Positions 12,241-24,129 of a stretch of DNA of 41,059 nt are shown one piece after another. The position numbers and the translations under genes were made by a program. The notes below the pieces were generated by a model. The model did not search any database. It was not told where the DNA came from and was given only the letters and a program-made list of their open reading frames with translations. The DNA is from Promethearchaeota archaeon (GTDB lineage: Archaea; Asgardarchaeota; Lokiarchaeia; Sigyniarchaeales; SOKP01): assembly GCA_019058245.1 (NCBI GenBank), contig JAHPZJ010000004.1, positions 1-41,059 of the forward strand. The letters are read 5' to 3'. The first letter of the stretch is position 1; each line of letters opens with the position of its first letter.

Positions 12241-13665
12241 GTGTTACTTATAAATCCAGATTATCCTGACGTTTTTAAGCATGGTGCCCAAAAAAATGTA
12301 ATTCTTCCTCCATTGGGTTTAGAATATATTGCTGCAAATATTGAAGATATAGCTGAAGTCCTTATAATTGATAATAGACTAAAAACTATAAATTTAAAAA
12401 GCATTGAAACTACAATTTATCAATTTCAGCCTGATTACGTAGGGATTAGCTGCAATTATAGTCCACAAATCTATCATGCAGTTAAAATTGCTAATATTGC
12501 TAAAACTTATGGATCAACGACAGTGATTGGCGGTTGGCACCCTACACTTGTTCCTGAAGAGACTCTTGAATTTCAATCTGTTGATATCTTGATTAGATGT
12601 GAAGGAGAAATAACATTTCGGGAACTTATTCAAAATAATTCTCCTATCGATATCCCAGGATTATCATATAAAAAAAATGGAAAAATAATTCATAATCCTG
12701 ACCGAGAATTGCTAGATTTAAAACATATTAAATTACCTTCTCGACACTATCGTTCAAAAGAAGCAAAAGTAGAATACAGTTTCTATGGTTTTTCTATTGA
12801 TTGCATTGAGACTAGCCGAGGTTGTCCATATTCGTGTAATTTTTGTTGTATTCACGAATTTTATCGAAAGAGATACCGGACTCGTTCAATACCAAGTATT
12901 ATAAAAGAATTAAATTCAAATGAGGTTAAAAATCAGAGCCCATTTATTTTTATCATTGATGATAATTTTTTGGTAGATCCTAAATTTGTAGAAGAACTAT
13001 GTAATGCCATTATTCAGGAAGGTATTAGAAAATACTTTTCAACTCAAATTCGTGTTGATATGATTGTAAGGTACCCAAAAATTATTAAAAAGATGGCTGA
13101 TGCTGGTTTTATTTTCCTCTTTTTAGGAATTGAGAGTTTTTCTGATCGAACTTTGAAATTTCTTAATAAACAAACTGAATTCAAACAAATCAGATCAGCT
13201 TTAAAAATTCTTCATGATTATGGCTATTTTATTCAAGGAAACATTATTCTAGGGGCTAATTTTGAGGATAAAAAAGAGGATTTAGAATCTACGATCGAAA
13301 TTGCTAAGAAATTGGAAATCGATTTAACAACCTTTTCAGTATTAACTCCATTTCCAGGAACAAAATTGATGGAAAAAGTTTTAGAGGACAATCTTTTACT
13401 AAGCAACGATTGGAGTGAATTTAACTGGTCAGTACCAATTATTAAATATCCCCACTTATCAATAAAAGATTTGAAAGATTGCTTGAATAGAGCATTTTTT
13501 GAAGTCTCAAATTCGAAAAAACTTTGGCCTAGAATTAAAACTGTCGTTCTAAATCGAGGACTAAGATTTCATATTCTAAGAGTAGTAAATGTAGTTATGT
13601 TCAAAACAGTCTTTCAGAAGATCGAACACTCCCTGAAACAAAGATCTAAAAAAACAAATAAATAA
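12241..13665 (+). CDS. B12-binding radical SAM enzyme (class B methyltransferase-like); start may be CTG at 12235
   Basis: PPLGLEYIAA, GGWHPT, EGE cobalamin-domain motifs; ETSRGCPYSCNFC; DDNF; GIES; TPFPGT. Confidence 0.9.
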   Translation: MLLINPDYPDVFKHGAQKNVILPPLGLEYIAANIEDIAEVLIIDNRLKTINLKSIETTIYQFQPDYVGISCNYSPQIYHAVKIANIAKTYGSTTVIGGWHPTLVPEETLEFQSVDILIRCEGEITFRELIQNNSPIDIPGLSYKKNGKIIHNPDRELLDLKHIKLPSRHYRSKEAKVEYSFYGFSIDCIETSRGCPYSCNFCCIHEFYRKRYRTRSIPSIIKELNSNEVKNQSPFIFIIDDNFLVDPKFVEELCNAIIQEGIRKYFSTQIRVDMIVRYPKIIKKMADAGFIFLFLGIESFSDRTLKFLNKQTEFKQIRSALKILHDYGYFIQGNIILGANFEDKKEDLESTIEIAKKLEIDLTTFSVLTPFPGTKLMEKVLEDNLLLSNDWSEFNWSVPIIKYPHLSIKDLKDCLNRAFFEVSNSKKLWPRIKTVVLNRGLRFHILRVVNVVMFKTVFQKIEHSLKQRSKKTNK

Positions 13666-13739: not shown

Positions 13740-15152
13740 TTATTTTTCTTCCAAAAGTCCATGCTTTTTGAGACCTTCTCTCATATCTGCTTGAAATGGT
13801 TCTGGTGTTCCTTCTATAAAGGCTTCAATCATATCTTGGTTTTGAATATTTGGTGAAGATCTTTTTTTTGCTTTCTCCTCCGCGAGAGAGGAAATGACCA
13901 TTTTTGCAATTTGTTGAAATTGAGGGGGTGATAATTTTATTAATTCATCAAAAATAATCTTAGTTTCGGTATCCCATAATAAACCATCTTTTTTTTCTTT
14001 CTTTGGTTTAGCCGTTTCTACTCCAAATTCACGGCTAGTTAATATATCATCAAGATAATCTTTTATAGACTCTACATAACTTGTAGATTCATCTTTATTT
14101 AATATAACCGCTTTCTTTGCCCATTCATTACAATAATTACACTCATCGCACGTTGAGATACAATCTTGTTTTTTAAAAAAATCTATAAATCCATCAAGTT
14201 TCGTATTATCAATTATTAATTTGGATTTATTCTCTTCAGTGACTGTTTTTGTGAATTTAATATTTGGATCTTTTTCCACTCCAATTGACATAGTAAATCC
14301 TTGAATAATATCAATAAGGTTTCCTTCATATTTTCTTGAAGAAAATGCTTTCACAGATCTAATAATCCAATCAGTGGACATCCGACGTCCAGCTATCTTA
14401 AAATCTGTGATTCCAATTTCTTCATAATGAGATAAATCTTCCGGACGAACCCACCTACATTTGAGGATCTCCGCAGGATTTGAAAATTTAATAATACTAC
14501 AATTTAATACACAAGTATCGATGTAATTTCTGTCGAATTGCTGATATGTTTGAGAAGAATGACCTAATATATTATAATGATAATGCCTGAAAGGACATTG
14601 ATATAAACAACCATCAGTTAATAGAAGGACAATTTTACATTTAACCGCTTTCTTAATATTTTTTAAAGTCTTGAAATCACGATTGATCATGACATCTGGA
14701 GTTATTTCATCAGCACCTAGCATTTCATAAAATTTCGCTCTATTTACACTATTAACGTGCGAAATAGTTGAAACTCGTATTTTTAGCTTTGGAAATTGTT
14801 CTTTTATAAGTTGTATTAAAAAAGGAATAGTTACTATTACACTATCAACACCAATATCAGTAATCCATTGAAGATAATTAAGCAACTCTTTGTGATAATG
14901 CGGATCATACTCCATATTATTCATACAAGGAGCATTTAACAGATAGGAAAACTTCATTTTATGTTCATGAACCCTTTTAATGTATTCTGCTATTTCTTCA
15001 TCAGATATATTTCGTAATAAAAATGAGGGTCGACCTCCTCCAACAATTGTATGATCTGCTACTCCATATAAATCAACGACAGGATATTTAGCTAATTCAT
15101 CAATCAAATCTGGATCCCAATTTGTTGCAACATAGAATTGAATCAAAATCAC
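13740..15152 (-). CDS. U32-family Fe-S protein (UbiU/UbiV/RlhA/TrhP-like hydroxylase superfamily) with C-terminal PCP_red/DUF2621-like domain; likely start TTG 15146
   Basis: YLLNAPC, GVDSVIV, ISTxxHV-like segment, GCLYQCPF, WVRPEDL, FKIAGR; extra CxxxCxxCxxC; C-terminal WDTETK...PPQFQ...AEEKA...TPEPFQ. Confidence 0.85.
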   Translation of the reverse strand: MILIQFYVATNWDPDLIDELAKYPVVDLYGVADHTIVGGGRPSFLLRNISDEEIAEYIKRVHEHKMKFSYLLNAPCMNNMEYDPHYHKELLNYLQWITDIGVDSVIVTIPFLIQLIKEQFPKLKIRVSTISHVNSVNRAKFYEMLGADEITPDVMINRDFKTLKNIKKAVKCKIVLLLTDGCLYQCPFRHYHYNILGHSSQTYQQFDRNYIDTCVLNCSIIKFSNPAEILKCRWVRPEDLSHYEEIGITDFKIAGRRMSTDWIIRSVKAFSSRKYEGNLIDIIQGFTMSIGVEKDPNIKFTKTVTEENKSKLIIDNTKLDGFIDFFKKQDCISTCDECNYCNEWAKKAVILNKDESTSYVESIKDYLDDILTSREFGVETAKPKKEKKDGLLWDTETKIIFDELIKLSPPQFQQIAKMVISSLAEEKAKKRSSPNIQNQDMIEAFIEGTPEPFQADMREGLKKHGLLEEK

Positions 15153-15271
15153 CTTAAGATATTTAGTTTATTTTTTATTTTTCTCTTTTCTCCATTAACT
15201 ATTTTTTCTTAACTCATAATTTTTTAAATGAATAAAAAATCCCTTATTAGTTCTTATTATACATTGTCTTT

Positions 15272-15673
15272 TTATTGTTGAATTGCTTTTTCATGAGCTT
15301 TTGCATTAAGTGGTAATAATGGTGCACATGCCATCAACTTACTTACATCACCATCCACAACATAAGTACCTGCCATAGTTGCTTGAATAGGATCAGATTC
15401 TCCAGAATTTACTTTTTTAATTGTATCGAAATCTGTTTTGTGGATGATTTTTGGAACATCAGGTCCTGAATAAATTCCTATTCCCCAATCCATCTTACCA
15501 TGATCAATAAACTGCCAATAACTCATCTCAGGTTTATCAGTTATTTCATATTGAAAGATTAAAGGTGCAATTGGGTCTAACATTGAGGCTAAATCTGGTA
15601 GTTCATTGTAGGCCTTCATAAAACGTTCAAGATATGCTTTCCATTCTTCTTTTGTGTCCAATTTTATTTTCAC
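15272..15673 (-). CDS. SCP2 sterol/lipid-carrier domain protein; likely start TTG 15661
   Basis: SGESDPIQATMAGTYVVDGDVSKLM matches the SCP2 C-terminal signature; AAGGAGGTGA Shine-Dalgarno upstream of the TTG. Confidence 0.8.
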   Translation of the reverse strand: MKIKLDTKEEWKAYLERFMKAYNELPDLASMLDPIAPLIFQYEITDKPEMSYWQFIDHGKMDWGIGIYSGPDVPKIIHKTDFDTIKKVNSGESDPIQATMAGTYVVDGDVSKLMACAPLLPLNAKAHEKAIQQ

Positions 15674-15733
15674 CTCCTTTATTTTTATTTTTTTGTGTCT
15701 TTGGAATTATTTTTCTTAAAGATTATTAAATTA

Positions 15734-16906
15734 TCACTTATAAGATTCAAGTCCTGCTTTACATCCCATTGCTAAGAAATCAACCATAGTTCCATTATAG
15801 TCGTTTTCAATTTTATAATAGAACCCCTTTTGAGAGAAAGTAGCTCCCCAGATAAATTTATGTGAATCACTCTGGAGTGGAGTTCTATCGACAAACTCTT
15901 TCATTAAAGGATGCAAATGTATAGGAATTTCTTTGGGATCATTACACGTTATTCCAAAACATAAACGTTCGACTTCTTTTGAATCCCAACTGAATGTATA
16001 ATTAAGATGAGCAGCCTTACGACATCCTTCCATCACTTCTTCAGATGCGGGCTTAAATCCTAATTCTGTTACCAATGCAATGCAACTATCATATGCGGAT
16101 TTAGCTGGCTGTTTGAGCATGAAATAAATGTTTGTTGTATTATGTAGAAAATCAAAAGCAAATAAACTAAAAGCTGTTAAACCGTGTCTATTAAAGTATT
16201 CTTTGTAATCTGCCATACTTTTTGGGATTGATATCATTGAAAATATTGGATCAATGGATCCAGGCACTGTAAAAGGCCAAATCTTCGATAAACCAGTGCT
16301 AGCATCTACATCAACACCATATCCCATGATTTCAAAAGTATTAAGTGATTCCATTATCATCTTATGAATTGGATGTCCACTTTTTTCAATTAAACCTTTA
16401 TTTACAGCGGTTGTATAAGGATCTGGATTGTGAGATATGAAAAATTCAACATATCTTACTGCTACATCTCTTTTTTCAACTGGTTTAGTAGTTGTTCTAA
16501 TTGATACTGGAGCACCTTTAAAAAATTTCTCAAATGTATTGAATGCTTTCCATATTGCTTTTTCATTACATTTTACACCCGTAATATCACAGAGAATCCC
16601 CATATCTTTAACCATTTGATTGAGATCTGTATTACACTTGAAATCAGAATTCACTTTGGATAGATATCTATCATAATCTACTCCAAGATTTTTTAGGTCT
16701 TCAATCATAGTAGGTTGAAAAGCGGGTGGAGTTACCTCAAACAACGCCACTACTAAATCTAATTCAGCTACTTCTTTTCCATTGCGCTCAATGCATTTTT
16801 TTTCTGCAGCTTCATGAAGAGCTGGTTCTACTGCGGGTCTCACCATTTCTGGTATTCCTAAGATAATTTTTTCAAAAAGTAGTTTAATTTCTGATTGCCA
16901 TTCCAT
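15734..16906 (-). CDS. PCP_red/DUF2621-like domain fused to ABBA-type (NphB/CloQ, PT-barrel) aromatic prenyltransferase
   Basis: RTTTK, DPYTTAVxxGL, YGVDVDASTGLSKIWPF, FDFLHNTTNIYF, TFSWDSKEVERLCF, YYKIENDY follow the NphB/CloQ motif order; soluble, with no DDxxD or UbiA membrane pattern. Confidence 0.85.
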   Translation of the reverse strand: MEWQSEIKLLFEKIILGIPEMVRPAVEPALHEAAEKKCIERNGKEVAELDLVVALFEVTPPAFQPTMIEDLKNLGVDYDRYLSKVNSDFKCNTDLNQMVKDMGILCDITGVKCNEKAIWKAFNTFEKFFKGAPVSIRTTTKPVEKRDVAVRYVEFFISHNPDPYTTAVNKGLIEKSGHPIHKMIMESLNTFEIMGYGVDVDASTGLSKIWPFTVPGSIDPIFSMISIPKSMADYKEYFNRHGLTAFSLFAFDFLHNTTNIYFMLKQPAKSAYDSCIALVTELGFKPASEEVMEGCRKAAHLNYTFSWDSKEVERLCFGITCNDPKEIPIHLHPLMKEFVDRTPLQSDSHKFIWGATFSQKGFYYKIENDYNGTMVDFLAMGCKAGLESYK

Positions 16907-16935
16907 TTTTTTTAACCTTTTATTTTCTTTTTTTT

Positions 16936-18336
16936 CTATTTTAGCAATTCAATTTCTTCCTTTTCAGCATCATAAATTTCATGTTCATGGTCATTTTCAT
17001 GCCAACAAAAAGGAAATGAACCAAAAAAATCTCCAGTTATATATTCTGCGGTAACGCGGCATCCCCCCCCACAATACTTAAGATGATGGCAAGAAGCACA
17101 TTTCCCCTTTATTTTTTTCCTGTCACGAATATCCTTATAAAGTTGGGAATTTAAGACATTTTCAAAATTATCCTTTAATGCATTTCCTAGTGTCAAGGTT
17201 GTAGGATATCCCGCAGGATATATTGTTCCATTAATCCCAATCCCCATCATTGTCCTACAAGCTAAACATCCCACACCCCATTCAATTGTCGCCATTTCCT
17301 TATCGTCTTTTGGTTGTTCCATAAAAGGCATCATATCATATATTTCATAAGCTGGTAAAGTACCTGCCTTACCTTTTCTTATTGTTTCAATCGCATGTTT
17401 ATATTTAAAATCATACATTTTTTTATATTCTTCTTTATTAAGTCCTATTTCGTCCCAGAATTCAGCAGCTCGATTTTGTTTAACCACACATCGAAAGTAT
17501 GGTTGTGAACCCCATTCTTCTGATAAATTTTTAAGCTGTTCTAGCTCATCAATATTTTGCTTCATAATTGTAATTGATGAACATACAAATATCCCATTTT
17601 TCAAACACAAATCGATCGCTTTCCTAGCATAATCTAACGAATTAGGAAAACCACGGATTTCATCGTTTTTCTTAGGATCTATGCTGTCAAAACTAACAAA
17701 TATATGACTTATATTGTTTTCCTTACACATTTTTGCAAATTTATCATCAAATTTTACACCATTGGTAATAAGGGCATGGATATAATCATTTTCTTTACAA
17801 AATTCCATAATTTCTCCAATATCTTTACGCAGAGTAGGCTCTCCACCAAACCAAACAAAACATGCATGTCTACCTTGATTTCTTAATCCAGTTTCTACGT
17901 TTTCTATTATTTTGAACCAATCATCTACAGATAACTCTGGTCTTGGTACCATATCATCAGCAGCGCAATGAATACATTTTTGATTACATTTATCTGTAAG
18001 ATACATAGCAAAATGGATATTTCCAGGATGAAATCCTCTTTCTATTTTCTCCCAAGAGATTTTAAGTCGATCCTTTATATCTCTAAGTTCTATATATCGT
18101 TCAACATCAATACCTAACTTCGTTAGATCTTCAATCATTACGGGTTTAAAAGCTTCTGGTATAATATCAAAAATACCCATTATAACATCAGCATCATTAA
18201 TATAAGCACCATTACGTTCAAGACATCTTTTTTCTGCAGCTTCAACTATTAATGGTTCTACAGAAGGTCTAAAACCCTGAGGCATCTGATCTCCTATTCT
18301 TCCGAATAAAACTTTTGTTTCTTTTTCCCATTCCAT
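16936..18336 (-). CDS. PCP_red/DUF2621-like domain plus radical SAM/SPASM enzyme (paralog B)
   Basis: CNQKCIHC, GGEP, SPASM cysteines GCLAC...CASCHHLKYCGGGCR...C. Confidence 0.9.
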   Translation of the reverse strand: MEWEKETKVLFGRIGDQMPQGFRPSVEPLIVEAAEKRCLERNGAYINDADVIMGIFDIIPEAFKPVMIEDLTKLGIDVERYIELRDIKDRLKISWEKIERGFHPGNIHFAMYLTDKCNQKCIHCAADDMVPRPELSVDDWFKIIENVETGLRNQGRHACFVWFGGEPTLRKDIGEIMEFCKENDYIHALITNGVKFDDKFAKMCKENNISHIFVSFDSIDPKKNDEIRGFPNSLDYARKAIDLCLKNGIFVCSSITIMKQNIDELEQLKNLSEEWGSQPYFRCVVKQNRAAEFWDEIGLNKEEYKKMYDFKYKHAIETIRKGKAGTLPAYEIYDMMPFMEQPKDDKEMATIEWGVGCLACRTMMGIGINGTIYPAGYPTTLTLGNALKDNFENVLNSQLYKDIRDRKKIKGKCASCHHLKYCGGGCRVTAEYITGDFFGSFPFCWHENDHEHEIYDAEKEEIELLK

Positions 18337-18348
18337 TATTTTTCGCCT

Positions 18349-19716
18349 TTAAGCACAATTCTCATGTTCATGATCATCATCATGCCAACAGAAAGGAAGT
18401 GAAGCTAAAAAATCACCCGTTACATTCTCCGCATGCACCCTGCAACCCCCACCACACATATCAAGGTGGTGACAAGTTGAACACTTACCTTTTATTTTTC
18501 GATCTCTAATTTTTTTGAACATTTCAGTTTCCATAATTTCATTCCAACTCTGCTCAAGAATATTACCTAAGATTAAATCAGAGGGATAATCACAAGGGAA
18601 TACATCCCCATTAGTATCAATCCCGGAAATTGAGCGACAGGCTTGACATCCTGTGCCCCATTCGATCGCAGTCCTTTCTTCATCATTTATAGGACACTCC
18701 ATGAATGGTACCATATCCCATGTATAGAATTTATTGAGCGATGATCCTTCTCCTTTTCTGATAGCTTCTATAGTATTTTTATATTTAAAATCATAGAATT
18801 GTCGATATTCTTCCATGCTTAAGCCGATTTCGTCCCAATTTAAATCCGCTGAACGTTGTTTAATTAGGGGTCTATAAAAGGGTGTTACACCCCTAGAATT
18901 AAAATATTCCCTTAACTTATCTAATTCATCGAAATTCTCTTTTTGAGCAGTTACATTAGCAATGGTAAAAATCCCATATTTTGCAGCTAAATCTAATGCT
19001 TTTTCCGCCGCTTCGTATGGTTTTGGATGCCCTCTAATTTTTGCAGCACGTTTGGGATCCGTACTATCATAACTAATAAAAATATGGCTCATCTTAACAT
19101 CTGCGCATATTTTTGCCAGTTCTTCAGTAAACAAAATTCCATTAGTTGCAAGTGCTTGATAATAGCCCTTTTCACCACAATATTTTATTAGATCTTTAAG
19201 ATCTTTACGAATAGTAGGTTCTCCTCCAAACCATATATAACATCCTCGTCGCCCGCGTTTTCGTAAACTTTGTTCAAGATCCTCAATAATTTCAATCCAA
19301 GTTTCCATGGGAAATTCTGGACGTTTCTCCATTACCGAAGCAGCACAATGGAGACAATTTTGATTGCATCGATCCGTCAGATATATAGTAAAATGATAGA
19401 CACCGGGTAAGAAAGCTCCACTAATTTCATTCCATGTACGAGCGTATTGTTTTCTAATTTCTGATAATTTTATATATCTGTCCGTATCGATCCCTATTGT
19501 CTCCAAATCCTTGACAACTGTGGGTTGAAATGCTTCTGGTGTTATCTCAAATAATGCAGAAAGCAAATCATCCCTACTTACAAATCCAGAATTCCTAAGC
19601 TGTGCTGTTTTTTCAGCAGCCTCACGTAACATAGGTTTAACAGATGGGCGAAACGCTTCAGGGGTTAAATTCGTTATTTTTATATACAAATCTTCAATTT
19701 CTCTTTTCCATTCCAT
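18349..19716 (-). CDS. PCP_red/DUF2621-like domain plus radical SAM/SPASM enzyme (paralog A)
   Basis: CNQNCLHC, GGEP, GCQAC...GDVFPC...CSTCHHLDMCGGGCR...C. Start set at MEW (19716) by analogy with the two neighbouring genes that also begin MEW. Confidence 0.9.
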   Translation of the reverse strand: MEWKREIEDLYIKITNLTPEAFRPSVKPMLREAAEKTAQLRNSGFVSRDDLLSALFEITPEAFQPTVVKDLETIGIDTDRYIKLSEIRKQYARTWNEISGAFLPGVYHFTIYLTDRCNQNCLHCAASVMEKRPEFPMETWIEIIEDLEQSLRKRGRRGCYIWFGGEPTIRKDLKDLIKYCGEKGYYQALATNGILFTEELAKICADVKMSHIFISYDSTDPKRAAKIRGHPKPYEAAEKALDLAAKYGIFTIANVTAQKENFDELDKLREYFNSRGVTPFYRPLIKQRSADLNWDEIGLSMEEYRQFYDFKYKNTIEAIRKGEGSSLNKFYTWDMVPFMECPINDEERTAIEWGTGCQACRSISGIDTNGDVFPCDYPSDLILGNILEQSWNEIMETEMFKKIRDRKIKGKCSTCHHLDMCGGGCRVHAENVTGDFLASLPFCWHDDDHEHENCA

Positions 19717-19815
19717 TATATTCACTTCATATAAATTTCAAAATACTTTTTGTATGTTTAAATTTAAACTTTAAATTATTAATTTTCAAAAAATTATAGG
19801 AGAAAGTTATCATTT

Positions 19816-20523
19816 TTATCCCTCCAGTTGAAAAGGTTTAGTAAAATATTCAATATTAGTTTGAGGATAAAGATATTGATTGATAGAAATACTATCGAAT
19901 TTTTTAATATAAAATATATAAAAAAATTGTAGAAAGTATGAATATTGCAATAATTTAAACAAAGATTGAAATATTGCTATATTATTAATATCAACAACAT
20001 AATTTCCTTTTTCTTTCAAGAAGTAGTATTTGTTCTTGCAATTATTTGTTAGACTTTCATTTTCTTCAAATTTAATAGATAAAATTAATACATTAGAGGG
20101 AACTATTGGTTCATCTCCTAATCCAAAAAGTATGATTGAACCTTGATATAAATTATAGATCTGATTTTTAGAATCAAAATCAAATGATTCTTGAAAATCT
20201 TCCTCTAAACAAACCTTTATATAATATTGATAAGCAATTCTATCAACTAACACACTTATATTTGTGATAATTATACTATCAATCAAAAATCCAGAACTGA
20301 TTTGGATAAATTGAAATTTATTAGGTAAAAACCAAAAAATATTATTAAAAGATAAGAAAGGAAGGAAAATTGAATTTCCTAATGCTATATAATCTTTTGC
20401 AATAGAAATAAAGAAATCAATCTCTCCTAAAAACGAAAAAATTAGAGTAATTGGGATACTCACAAAAATAATGATTAAAATTAATATAAATTTCGTAATA
20501 TTTTGTATTTGAGTGGAACGCAT
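19816..20523 (-). CDS. Hypothetical membrane-associated protein
   Basis: 235-codon ORF in very AT-rich DNA; hydrophobic N-terminal half; no motif recognised. Confidence 0.45.
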   Translation of the reverse strand: MRSTQIQNITKFILILIIIFVSIPITLIFSFLGEIDFFISIAKDYIALGNSIFLPFLSFNNIFWFLPNKFQFIQISSGFLIDSIIITNISVLVDRIAYQYYIKVCLEEDFQESFDFDSKNQIYNLYQGSIILFGLGDEPIVPSNVLILSIKFEENESLTNNCKNKYYFLKEKGNYVVDINNIAIFQSLFKLLQYSYFLQFFYIFYIKKFDSISINQYLYPQTNIEYFTKPFQLEG

Positions 20524-20691
20524 ATTTAATTATAATTGATTAATTTTAAGCTGAATATATAAATTCTCTAAAAACTTCCCATAATGTTGTATTTTTAATA
20601 ATAAAATTCATTTACATTTAAAAATTTCGAATTAGTCTAAAAAATTAATTAGACTGATATGTATTGGTAAAATATTGGAATATTGATCTTC

Positions 20692-22185
20692 TCAATCAGA
20701 AAGATTAGACCCTGTAGTTAAAGAAGTGAGTATCGTACTTAAAAATAATAACATATTTGCATTACGAATTGACATTTTGGAAAAATTACTTGTTTCATAA
20801 TTTATAGCATTGTAGAAAAATGATATTTTAGTTCTTTTAAAAAATTCAGAAATTTGGGGAAATGAATTTAAAGTTAATTTTAAACCAAATTTCTCAGGAG
20901 ACTCATGAGCAGGGGATCCCGGAAAAACATGATAAGGTTCATTCATTATAGTTATGGGTTTGGAACTCGATTTCCCATATTTTAATTGACACTTTAAGGC
21001 AAAAATGAAATCTTTTTGAATATCTAAATGAGTTTGGAAAGGAAAACCGACAGTTAGCCAAATTCTTAAAGTTCTTCGGTATAAATTTGCATTCTTTATT
21101 AAATCATTTATTTGCTTTTTAGGAAAATTAAAAGTTGGATCACAGAGTTTCGCTATTTTCTGATGTACTCTACTTGACATTGTTCTAGGAGATATACTGA
21201 GTGATGAATATCTACGAGGAAATGTTTTATAGAACGCATTCCACATATCTTTAGGAAATGGTAATCTCCATATCTCTAAGTCTCCCCCAATGTCAAAATC
21301 TTCTTTCTGAATTAATCCAAATAATCTTTTCCAATATTTTAATGTGGCTGGATAAGTACCATGTCCAAAAAAAATACTTGGTATCTTAAAATTATTGCTA
21401 ATACTACTAATATCATCAATTATTTTCTCTGGTTTTCTAAGGATAACATTTTCTCGACCTGATAAAATCTTTTGTGCCCTTTGGCCTCCTCCACAATAGG
21501 GACAATTAAAAGGGCATCCTCTTCCAATAGGAAGATTAAATGAGATTCCCATCATTTGTCTACTGGATTCAAAATATTGTTTTGCATTTTCTAAAAGTGA
21601 AAAATTAGTAAAATTCAAATTATCTAAAGTCTTTGCGGTATATGTGAGAGAATTAATTTTAATGTGCTTTGAAGAATCTCTATAAGATAAATTAGGAACA
21701 TTCTCTAAAGATTGATTCTTTTTGATACATTGAACATATTTTAGAAGTGGAATCTCTCCTTCCCCTCTGATTATTGCATCGATATCTTCATAGTATTTCA
21801 GTATTTGATAATGATAATACGATGCGCTATATCCTCCAAGAACCACTTTACTATTAGGATTTGCTTTTTTTACAATTTTAGCAACTTCAATTGCACCATG
21901 AGCATTATGAATCCAATGTAAATCTAATCCACACACTTTAAAATCAATATTTTTAAGAAAATTTGTTAATTTCCAGTTACGATTTAGATATTGCTCTAAC
22001 GGATAATTTAATATTTTAACTCCAAAGCCTTCTTTCTCAAGTAAATCTGCAATTGCAAAAACACCCATCGGTAAAAAAAGGAATGTCCCTCGTATGAATT
22101 TGGCATTTTTACGATAATCTGGACGTAATACTCTTGGTGGATGAATTAAAAGTAAGTCGTATTTTTTCAAGTAAAATACCATCAA
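20692..22185 (-). CDS. B12-binding radical SAM enzyme (divergent subfamily)
   Basis: LIHPP, PMGVFAIA, LDLHW, LGGYSA, RGEGE; GRGCPFNCPYCGG; FPGSP. Confidence 0.85.
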   Translation of the reverse strand: MMVFYLKKYDLLLIHPPRVLRPDYRKNAKFIRGTFLFLPMGVFAIADLLEKEGFGVKILNYPLEQYLNRNWKLTNFLKNIDFKVCGLDLHWIHNAHGAIEVAKIVKKANPNSKVVLGGYSASYYHYQILKYYEDIDAIIRGEGEIPLLKYVQCIKKNQSLENVPNLSYRDSSKHIKINSLTYTAKTLDNLNFTNFSLLENAKQYFESSRQMMGISFNLPIGRGCPFNCPYCGGGQRAQKILSGRENVILRKPEKIIDDISSISNNFKIPSIFFGHGTYPATLKYWKRLFGLIQKEDFDIGGDLEIWRLPFPKDMWNAFYKTFPRRYSSLSISPRTMSSRVHQKIAKLCDPTFNFPKKQINDLIKNANLYRRTLRIWLTVGFPFQTHLDIQKDFIFALKCQLKYGKSSSKPITIMNEPYHVFPGSPAHESPEKFGLKLTLNSFPQISEFFKRTKISFFYNAINYETSNFSKMSIRNANMLLFLSTILTSLTTGSNLSD

Positions 22186-22300
22186 ATATGATTAAAAATT
22201 GGTTCTTAATACAATCTTAAAATTAATTAACTATTTATTGAATAATTAGTATTTGGATTAATACTTTAATTAAATTATTCCTGATAATATTTTTTTTTAA

Positions 22301-22831
22301 TTACACTTTAATTTCGACTTCTTTAGAACTCTGTATAATTGTTTGATTTATTCCTCTTAAATAATCAGAAACTTGACCTATGTGATATAATTTATTCTTA
22401 ATTAAAATAAAAATAAAAATTAATAGACCGGTGCTTTCAGTAATCATTACTAGTGGATTTGTCCATAGTTGTTGTATCCAAAATAATAAGGGTTCTTCAA
22501 CAAATTGAAAATTATAAGAAATAAAAGGGTAGAATAAAGGTACATAAGGTAAATCTAAAATTAAATGGAAAATAAGACCTATAAGAAGGGGAAATGAAAT
22601 ACTTTTATTCCTTTTTGAAGAAAAATGAACAATTAAAAAACAGATAATTACAAATAATAAGTTATGAGAAATAAATCTCCCGTTTCCAAATCCTAAAAGA
22701 AATAATGGTTTATCTATGATATCTGAAAGTAGTGATCCGAGTAATAGTGCATACTTATTTATTTTTAATTTCTTTATTTGTGGGATTTCAGTAAATAGTA
22801 AAGGCAGAGCAGCATGAAATATTGGATATAT
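22301..22831 (-). CDS. Membrane-bound metal-dependent hydrolase (YdjM-like), 176 aa, ATA start; absent from the ORF track
   Basis: Open frame of 177 codons including the stop, read by hand: (M)YPIFHAALP...GSLLSDIIDKP...GRFISHNL...FHLILD. In-frame TAA immediately 5' of the ATA; GAGGT 7 nt upstream. Confidence 0.8.
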   Translation of the reverse strand: MYPIFHAALPLLFTEIPQIKKLKINKYALLLGSLLSDIIDKPLFLLGFGNGRFISHNLLFVIICFLIVHFSSKRNKSISFPLLIGLIFHLILDLPYVPLFYPFISYNFQFVEEPLLFWIQQLWTNPLVMITESTGLLIFIFILIKNKLYHIGQVSDYLRGINQTIIQSSKEVEIKV

Positions 22832-22854
22832 TTAAATTACCTCTTGGTTTTTGT

Positions 22855-24129
22855 TTAGATTTTCCAACTATTAAAAAAATAGACAAAATAGAATATAAAA
22901 ATAAATACTACAAGAAATTCAATTGATAAAATTAGAGATCTTTTAGCTAAATAATTGTAGGGAAAAAGTTTTTCATGATATAAATCAATTTCTTTAAATA
23001 AATCTGTAATTCTTAAAATCCCGAATCCTTGAGCTTCAGAATCATAATTCAAATCTTTGCTTGATTTTCTAATTAATTTAATAATTTCATTATATTTCAT
23101 TTTTGGATCATATTCTTTCATTACAGCGATAAATCCAACACCAATCGAAGCAGAAACGCTAGAACCAGATACATTTATTCTTAAATTTTGAGATATAGGT
23201 AACATCACGTTAGATCCATGTAGACATATATCTGGTTTTATTCTATGGTCTAAAGTAGGACCTCTTCCGCTAAAATTAGCTATATCCAGATCTTTTGTGA
23301 GTGCTCCAATTGTAATAACTTTTTCTGCTGCTCCAGGACTTCCAATAGTATATTTTTCTGGTCCAAAATTACCAGCTGGACATACAACAATAATTCCACT
23401 TTCCACTAATAAATTACAAGCTAAAGATAATATATCTTTTCCATCAGAACTATCTTTTGAGTTTAGAGAAATTAACAAGATATCAACATTTATATTTTCG
23501 GTAATAATTTTATCAAAAATATTTAAAATATTTGAGAAGTAGTACTCTTGATTGATAGTGGATATATTAAAGTCTAAAATATTAGCATCTGGAGCAATTC
23601 CAATATAATTATCCTCTGCATTTTTAAATTGATTACTAATTATACTAGCCATTAAAGTCCCATGGGTGATCTTACTTTCAACATTCTTTAAATCGTTGAT
23701 TTTTTCTGTTTTGTTGTTCAAATAATATCTTAATATATTTTTTGATATTGATGAAAAATTCTCATTTATTCCATCATCAATAATTCCTATATTTACATTT
23801 TTTCCTGTATAGGATATTTGGGAATTTTTATAATCGTTTATTTCTAAGATTTCAAGTACATCTAATATAGATTGATAAAGTCTTTGGTCTTCTTCGATTT
23901 TCTTAACTGATTTGCTTTCATTGTAAATATTAATTTTTTCTTTTGTTAAATTAACATAAATAGAAGGAATTAAATCAAATTTCCCTAGAATTTTCAAATC
24001 TTCGTTGTCTTCTAAGAATTTTTCTCGATTTGACAAATTTTCAAACGAAATTATTACTCGAAATTGTTGATTTGTCTGACTATCAACCTTTTCTTTAAAG
24101 GGCTCATAAATTTTAGAATTTTCACTCAT
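22855..24129 (-). CDS. Subtilisin-like S8 serine protease with propeptide-like N-domain and C-terminal TM anchor
   Basis: IIDDG (Asp), HGT (His), PAGN (oxyanion Asn), SGSSVSA (Ser), FSGRGP, KPDI, QGFG. Confidence 0.85.
   Translation of the reverse strand: MSENSKIYEPFKEKVDSQTNQQFRVIISFENLSNREKFLEDNEDLKILGKFDLIPSIYVNLTKEKINIYNESKSVKKIEEDQRLYQSILDVLEILEINDYKNSQISYTGKNVNIGIIDDGINENFSSISKNILRYYLNNKTEKINDLKNVESKITHGTLMASIISNQFKNAEDNYIGIAPDANILDFNISTINQEYYFSNILNIFDKIITENINVDILLISLNSKDSSDGKDILSLACNLLVESGIIVVCPAGNFGPEKYTIGSPGAAEKVITIGALTKDLDIANFSGRGPTLDHRIKPDICLHGSNVMLPISQNLRINVSGSSVSASIGVGFIAVMKEYDPKMKYNEIIKLIRKSSKDLNYDSEAQGFGILRITDLFKEIDLYHEKLFPYNYLAKRSLILSIEFLVVFIFIFYFVYFFNSWKI

Follow-up and report, generated by a model that had tools for sequence, protein, structure and literature searches.

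A helical domain shared by four enzymes of an Asgard archaeal gene cluster and its candidate role as an adaptor for an SCP2 lipid carrier

Several enzymes of the UbiT/UbiU/UbiV system, and likewise of the UbiJ-centred Ubi metabolon, are believed to receive their hydrophobic intermediates from an SCP2 carrier (PMC6747719; PMC10470549). A common handle of another kind is found in pathways for ribosomally synthesised and post-translationally modified peptides (RiPPs), where one small PqqD-like domain, the RiPP recognition element (RRE), is fused to several tailoring enzymes or encoded as a free-standing protein, and binds the leader peptide. Here we describe an 80-residue helical domain appended to four enzymes of a gene cluster from a Promethearchaeota archaeon (assembly GCA_019058245.1, contig JAHPZJ010000004.1, positions 1 to 41,059; this whole stretch of 41,059 nucleotides is hereafter the window). 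Its hosts are two radical S-adenosylmethionine (SAM) enzymes with SPASM domains (SPASM-A and SPASM-B), an ABBA aromatic prenyltransferase and a U32-family protein, and the same cluster encodes an SCP2 protein. Within a Pfam family of unknown function, we class it as a recruitment or adaptor domain that enzymes of one biosynthetic cluster have in common. As in the Ubi systems, where SCP2 occurs with U32 Fe-S enzymes, the setting combines SCP2 and U32 in an oxygen-free context; the Ubi prenyltransferase is UbiA, whereas that of the window is a soluble ABBA barrel. The proteobacterial Ubi enzymes are not known to have an appended domain in common. The parallel with RREs and with the Ubi systems is one of logic, fold, partners and host enzymes being different.

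The four stretches are homologous copies of one domain, far beyond chance. They align over 80 residues without gaps, at 43, 53 and 26% identity relative to the first copy, and share eleven invariant positions (W3, E6, P19, A34, E35, R41, D50, P60, F63, L71 and G75), with which the consensus read earlier from the letters agrees. Pairwise E-values among the copies run from 1e-23 to 6e-9: in whole-protein BLASTP the prenyltransferase matched SPASM-A (52% over 82 residues, E = 1e-23) and the C-terminus of the U32 protein (30% over 74 residues, E = 6e-9), and no stretch besides the domain could be aligned between whole host proteins. The initial annotation had described a single helical domain added to four enzymes from three unrelated families, and these comparisons bear it out. 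It had also pointed to three genes that begin with ATGGAATGG (MEW); this string occurs exactly three times in the window, always at a gene start, against 0.47 occurrences expected and none of 100 shuffles reaching three. An alternative GTG start for SPASM-A lies at 19725, and the start at the conserved MEW, 19716, is more likely. A profile hidden Markov model (HMM) of the four copies, run over the 3.09-Mb assembly (76% complete), matched exactly four places, all in the cluster (E = 1e-37 to 1e-40; Table 1), so the SCP2 protein and the B12-binding radical SAM enzymes lack the domain, as had been supposed. The coordinates first assigned held in the main; the U32 copy spans 13982-13743, and the domain has 80 residues rather than about 75.

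The closest homologues are named as Promethearchaeota metagenome-assembled genomes (MAGs), that is, Loki-type Asgard archaea. In eight related loci the gene order is unchanged and the domain sits on the corresponding enzymes, and every cluster found encodes at least three domain-bearing proteins. Judged by these searches the domain is confined to the cluster, both in this genome and in relatives, and is therefore good evidence that the genes form one system, which had been the central claim made for it. The cluster itself is optional: among 150 genomes sampled from the phylum, 9 of 25 in the same family have the domain, none of the four others in the same genus does, and elsewhere it was seen once, weakly. 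A maximum-likelihood tree built on 36 copies, taken from the window and from seven related loci, groups them by host (prenyltransferase 97/94, U32 93/100, long U32 100/100, SPASM-B 92/86), with those of SPASM-A unresolved at the base, and the fusions are therefore old, each predating the divergence of these genomes. The tree gave no sign of recent exchange between paralogous copies, except for a tandem pair (locus L019) of which both members fall within the U32 group. Selection has kept the domain in place: 117 of 120 prenyltransferase homologues retain it, the domain-bearing prenyltransferase has a fixed length of 390 residues in more than 100 clusters, and within this family domain and catalytic barrel are conserved to the same degree (mean pairwise identity 62.9% vs. 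61.5%).

Relatives show the domain in N-terminal, C-terminal, internal, tandem and free-standing positions (Table 1), and it can be regarded on sequence grounds as autonomous and position-independent, as first proposed. It is not spread over functionally unrelated proteins. Ten partner types were found, almost all of them small-molecule tailoring enzymes, the others being SCP2 and a NuoE-like [2Fe-2S] ferredoxin. The association with SCP2 is recurrent. SCP2 is encoded, free or fused, in seven of the eight related loci compared (L017 included), and none was seen in the stretch examined of the eighth, L018. Among 43 longer proteins that contain this cluster's SCP2, 41 also carry the domain, and in 40 of the 43 the two are spaced by 4-54 residues. 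Such close fusions span five architectures: U32-domain-SCP2, SCP2-domain-prenyltransferase, SCP2-domain, SCP2-domain-domain and U32-domain-SCP2-domain-domain. Many related loci add a pair of U32-like genes encoding one protein of 383 residues and another of about 683, and the latter clearly ends, beyond its internal domain copy, in the SCP2 domain of the cluster. In loci that lack a free SCP2 gene, SCP2 stands about 40 residues past the domain in this 683-residue U32-domain-SCP2 protein.

From an alignment of 47 rows, AlphaFold2 modelled the prenyltransferase copy as a compact bundle of four helices (predicted local distance difference test, pLDDT, 95), with helices at residues 5-16, 23-40, 48-58 and 61-73 plus a two-residue beta-bridge. 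The residues that are near-invariant among relatives (W3, P19, R23, A34, E35, R41, D50, P60, F63 and G75) have the look of cap and core positions. The domain has no conserved Cys or His, so a metal or cofactor site is unlikely. For the full prenyltransferase, modelled with 65 homologues, pLDDT was 96.1 (86 in the linker block) and the predicted template modelling (pTM) score 0.92, a value that places the 80- and 300-residue domains confidently relative to each other. Read from pTM and pLDDT alone, the domain is predicted to pack rigidly on the barrel and would not be a floppy tag there. Prenyltransferase residues 92-384 match the solved FamD1 and AmbP3 (Z 37), AmbP1, NphB, CloQ and EpzP; because no solved ABBA prenyltransferase covers residues 1-90, the domain is an add-on unknown in characterised members of that family. 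An analogy to polyketide synthase (PKS) docking domains, drawn in the initial annotation, fits poorly with this picture. Docking domains of PKSs and nonribosomal peptide synthetases are short terminal helices on flexible linkers, whereas the present element is a folded 80-residue domain with a structured junction, rigid predicted packing and conservation as high as that of the catalytic domain, and it also occurs internally and free-standing.

Structural comparisons describe this fold. Foldseek against the PDB returned no match at E <= 0.001, its best rows being the NMR structures 2l09 and 2kru of the PCP_red domain, discussed below (target-normalised TM 0.51-0.54, E 0.2-0.5) together with histone folds. 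An exhaustive structure aligner ranked the AAA+ lid of BchI first (1g8p; Z 8.6, rmsd 2.6, 71 of 81 residues), with the lids of MCM, ORC, dynein and Rpt3 at Z 6-8, 2l09 at Z 6.2 (rmsd 2.8 over 57 residues) and 2kru at Z 5.4 (rmsd 2.8 over 60), the last two superposing on the first ~60 residues of the model. Since such Z values are common for small helical bundles, these matches are a description of the fold and not proof of kinship. A helix-strand-helix motif is reported for both AAA+ lids and histone folds, and the weak matches to the latter would be in keeping with it. The AAA+ lids are the best structural matches, yet lids follow a P-loop ATPase domain, of which the host proteins have none; no AAA family was matched by any host protein in Pfam, and AAA+ lid domains and the domain have no significant sequence similarity.

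That the domain is repeatedly fused beside SCP2 fits docking on the SCP2 carrier. The segments between the two also differ in character from the junction with the enzyme. In SCP2-domain-prenyltransferase proteins the linker from SCP2 to the domain is Gly/Ser-rich, and the link in U32-domain-SCP2 proteins ends in a variable Asn/Lys-rich stretch; a structured, conserved junction of domain and barrel as against a Gly/Ser-rich linker to SCP2 suggests a fixed adaptor and a tethered, mobile carrier. We tentatively suggest, stopping somewhat short of calling it probable, that the domain is a shared enzyme-side adaptor which would contact the cluster's SCP2 carrier. Each host enzyme acquired the domain long ago; with the domain held rigidly on each catalytic domain, the prenyltransferase, the two SPASM enzymes and the U32 protein would present one common surface. 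A mobile SCP2, tethered or free and carrying a hydrophobic prenylated intermediate, could dock on this surface and hand over its cargo, coupling the steps of an oxygen-free tailoring pathway. SCP2 would then have the role that UbiT or UbiJ has in ubiquinone synthesis, and the handle that RREs find in a leader peptide would here probably be a lipid-carrier protein.

Several observations weigh against an SCP2 adaptor. The adjacency of domain and SCP2 is partly explicable by the terminal position of the domain combined with fusion of neighbouring genes, and in one protein, domain-prenyltransferase-SCP2 (P0108), the two are not adjacent. The cluster's B12-binding radical SAM enzymes do without the domain. 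Charge complementarity between domain and SCP2 was considered and rejected, both being acidic. Free-standing bacterial relatives occur in a PKS-like operon without SCP2, as the sole copy in their genomes, and PCP_red, the C-terminal domain of the dark-operative protochlorophyllide oxidoreductase (DPOR) subunit BchB/ChlB to which the domain is distantly related (see below), also has no SCP2 partner in BchB; because of this operon and BchB, binding of SCP2 cannot be common to the entire superfamily.

The alternative that survives best is assembly of the enzymes with one another, in which homo- or hetero-oligomers of the domain copies would hold the enzymes in one multi-enzyme complex, SCP2 being recruited where it bears a copy. 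The minimum of three domain-bearing proteins per cluster speaks for such assembly, and so do the tandem copies in U32-domain-domain (L019), SCP2-domain-domain (P0226) and domain-domain-NuoE-like ferredoxin (P0249) proteins. Tandem copies often stand in for a dimer. The resemblance to AAA+ lids and, weakly, to histone folds points in the same direction, both being protein-contact modules, although at Z 6-8.6 it is generic for a helical bundle. However, the free SCP2 of the window bears no copy, yet SCP2 is kept in seven of eight related loci, and hetero-association is not the general role of the family, given four bacterial genomes with one free-standing copy each. On balance we regard assembly through domain-domain contacts as rather unlikely.

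The domain could instead be an integral cap, a lid over each active site that recognises a moiety shared by the substrates, such as a prenyl chain or aromatic ring. Its rigid predicted packing on the prenyltransferase barrel and its conservation at the level of the catalytic domain would both be expected of such a lid, and nearly all of its partners are enzymes whose substrates are small hydrophobic or aromatic molecules (ABBA prenyltransferase, U32, HpaB-like, PNPOx-like and methyltransferase proteins, and a type II PKS operon). In BchB, the C-terminal region helps to cover protochlorophyllide. A lid is harder to reconcile with a domain found at either end of one enzyme family (domain-prenyltransferase and, in P0130, prenyltransferase-domain), on the non-enzymes SCP2 and NuoE-like ferredoxin and free-standing, and its conserved residues resemble determinants of the fold (W, P, G and helix caps), not a pocket; we consider a cap unlikely.

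It is very improbable that the domain is a RiPP-type element binding the leader of an unrecognised precursor peptide modified by all four enzymes: RREs do sit at the same place, as an N-terminal extra domain on radical-SAM/SPASM enzymes, peptide maturases are among the second-tier matches of the SPASM enzymes, and B12-binding radical SAM enzymes and an S8 protease, both nearby, are known from RiPP clusters, but the predicted fold is all-helical with no winged helix and beta-sheet, the only sizeable gap (22186-22854) holds no credible short open reading frame (ORF), the S8 gene has no counterpart in eight related loci, and SCP2, U32 and an Orf2-type small-molecule prenyltransferase suggest a lipid-like substrate. 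The analogy to RREs made in the initial annotation does not extend to the predicted fold. RREs are winged helix-turn-helix domains with a three-stranded sheet, whereas four helices and a two-residue beta-bridge are predicted here, and no RRE or PqqD match was found in Pfam scans of the window proteins or the copies.

By sequence comparison the domain corresponds to the soluble part of Pfam DUF2621 (PF11084), with a distant relation to PCP_red (PF08369). Resemblance to both had been noted from the letters. That to DUF2621 stands: the U32 copy scores 29.5 bits when scanned alone (26.5 bits inside the whole protein) against a gathering cut-off of 27.7, and 37 of 48 free-standing relatives (best E = 3e-12) and 26 of 54 fusion relatives match. 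In the ESM Atlas the nearest clusters are bacterial DUF2621-type proteins of 77-96 residues. The window copies differ from the family in being fused to enzymes, and three of the four fall below the threshold (15.4 bits, 12.1 bits and no match). Every match is confined to profile positions 52-137 of 139, so that none covers the first ~50 positions of the full-length architecture, which we take to be a membrane anchor. The relation to PCP_red is plausible and indirect. Seventeen of the 48 free-standing relatives match its HMM at E <= 0.01 (best E = 7e-7), and there is the modest fold match described above, which is compatible with homology though of a size usual among helical bundles, but no window copy was listed even at E <= 10, the whole-genome scan gave none in the cluster, and the displayed scores of the relatives (21.1-28 bits) lie below the gathering cut-off of 32.5. 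PCP_red has 45 positions as against 80 here, where there is an extra helix, and its host is nitrogenase-like, unlike the hosts in the window. The domain profile did not find the BchB chains in the PDB; sequence searches of the PDB with the 4-copy and 47-row profiles gave nothing significant, the best row being a designed protein (E = 0.008), with weak histone-fold and uteroglobin rows besides. In the literature searched, no paper describes the domain or treats DUF2621, the function of PCP_red or Asgard aromatic (ABBA) prenyltransferases, none is informative on PCP_red, 2kru or 2l09, and reviews have nothing on the C-terminal domain of BchB.

A profile search of 1.84 billion representative proteins returned 252 matches at E <= 0.001. 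Among the best 150, roughly one in four is a long STAND protein built on TPR_10/TPR_12 repeats (P0134, P0141, P0162, P0163 and others); such proteins are bacterial, with trypsin or TIR N-termini and 5-10 matched stretches each; they were rejected as non-homologous, their scores summing many weak repeat matches, and are a trap when fusion partners of the domain are catalogued. The other matches are fusions and free-standing proteins of 77-105 residues. Among the latter, the 90-residue P0150 and its kin come from MAGs of 0.9-1.9 Mb labelled Planctomycetia or Omnitrophota (L028-L035), where they lie in a conserved operon encoding an AMP-dependent ligase, a PNP_UDP_1 phosphorylase, the domain, an ApbA-type reductase and an unknown 196-residue protein, followed by two ketosynthases, an acyl carrier protein (ACP), a PF04199 cyclase, an SRPBCC polyketide cyclase and an MFS transporter. 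Its gene content marks the operon as type II PKS-like. In four such genomes this copy is the only one, and the superfamily therefore works outside the Asgard cluster and without SCP2, and the domain can act alone in trans. It is doubtful, though worth stating, whether the whole DUF2621/PCP_red superfamily acts as a carrier or metabolon adaptor, coupling enzymes for hydrophobic aromatic intermediates to a carrier protein (SCP2 in the Asgard cluster, ACP or SRPBCC in the bacterial operon), with a similar role possible in protochlorophyllide reductase; such an adaptor would be a small-molecule counterpart of the RRE.

A shared appended domain is a strong marker, available from sequence only, of genes that belong to one pathway, and here it ties an ABBA prenyltransferase, two SPASM enzymes, U32 enzymes and SCP2 into an undescribed oxygen-free Asgard pathway. 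Its profile serves to find further biosynthetic clusters, as with the Planctomycetia/Omnitrophota operon. If docking on SCP2 is true, it would be a first function for DUF2621 and, more distantly, for PCP_red, and the 80-residue domain would be a tractable handle for isolating the complex and its lipid product.

Table 1. Domain copies and cluster genes in the window, related features elsewhere, and domain architectures among relatives
Feature	Position or source	Strand	Remark
Domain copy 1, N-terminus of SPASM-A	19477..19716	-	starts MEW; profile E 4.9e-39
Domain copy 2, N-terminus of SPASM-B	18097..18336	-	starts MEW; profile E 1.5e-40
Domain copy 3, N-terminus of ABBA prenyltransferase	16667..16906	-	starts MEW; profile E 2.9e-40
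Domain copy 4, C-terminus of U32 protein	13743..13982	-	most diverged; profile E 1.7e-37
B12-binding radical SAM enzyme	20692..22185	-	TIGR04190-like (Pfam/named-family scans); no domain; one cluster end
Membrane protein	19816..20523	-	conserved but fast-evolving; no Pfam family; no domain
SPASM-A (host gene)	18349..19716	-	domain + radical SAM + SPASM
SPASM-B (host gene)	16936..18336	-	domain + radical SAM + SPASM
ABBA (Orf2-type) aromatic prenyltransferase (host gene)	15734..16906	-	domain + PTase_Orf2 barrel
SCP2 lipid-carrier protein	15272..15673	-	no domain; proposed partner
U32 family protein (host gene)	13740..15152	-	UbiU/UbiV/TrhP-like; U32 + domain
B12-binding radical SAM enzyme	12241..13665	+	nearest BchE and HpnR; no domain; other cluster end
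Long U32 proteins, ~683 residues	L015:12048-14099, L016:14924-16993, L017:6256-8262, L018:9317-11359		
Example operon with free-standing domain	L031:3503-14033		
SCP2-domain-prenyltransferase	three clusters		
Domain-prenyltransferase-SCP2	P0108		domain and SCP2 not adjacent
Prenyltransferase-domain	P0130		domain C-terminal
SCP2-domain			
SCP2-domain-domain	P0226		
U32-domain-domain	L019		
U32-domain-SCP2			~683 residues; domain internal
U32-domain-SCP2-SCP2			
U32-domain-SCP2-domain-domain			
U32-domain-SCP2-...-SCP2-domain			bacterial
LuxC-domain-radical SAM/SPASM			
HpaB (C-terminal part)-domain			
Domain-methyltransferase			
Domain-PNPOx-like			
PNP_UDP_1-domain			
Domain-domain-NuoE-like [2Fe-2S] ferredoxin	P0249, P0278 and cluster (308 residues)		two tandem N-terminal copies

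According to the ORFs of the window and Pfam, a tight minus-strand row from 13740 to 22185 holds seven genes. The SCP2 protein scores 23.2 bits in Pfam (cut-off 21.3) and the adjoining U32 protein 51.1 bits; among named families the U32 protein matches only weakly (TrhP, 30 bits against a cut-off of 534). Both SPASM enzymes are nearest to the tetrapyrrole side-chain enzymes AhbD, AhbC and NirJ, at 120-140 bits and thus far under the cut-offs of 500-650. The proximity to these families and to BchE hints at decarboxylation-type chemistry and allows no assignment. An S8 subtilase with a C-terminal hydrophobic tail (22855-24129) lies beyond a 669-base gap from the cluster, and is probably outside it because all eight related loci compared lack a counterpart.

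In related loci the gene for the long U32 protein is always preceded by the 383-residue U32-like gene, which has no Pfam match, and the two are possibly a UbiU/UbiV-like pair; this pair is absent from the window, where SCP2 is encoded by a free gene. Locus L016 encodes two more radical-SAM/SPASM enzymes with a C-terminal SCP2 and no helical domain (L016:9398-10975 and L016:11007-12515). These were considered as domain-swapped forms of SPASM-A or SPASM-B and rejected, since they belong to a different radical SAM lineage (27% identity to SPASM-B). In one genome, G144, the cluster looks decayed (L020:6898-7377; C1:300270-300464): the N-terminus of its SCP2 keeps just the first helix of the domain, MEWEKEIKDIFEKII, another fragment of the domain is interrupted by a TGA stop, and neither prenyltransferase nor SPASM genes were observed there. 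This SCP2 was accordingly rejected as a domain-SCP2 fusion, the helix being merely a remnant. Directly before the domain copy of the window's U32 protein stands a CxxxCxxCxxC motif (13983-14060, residues about 365-390) that may be an extra metal or Fe-S site, and in the relative P0259 the domain comes after a comparable motif, CxxCxxC.

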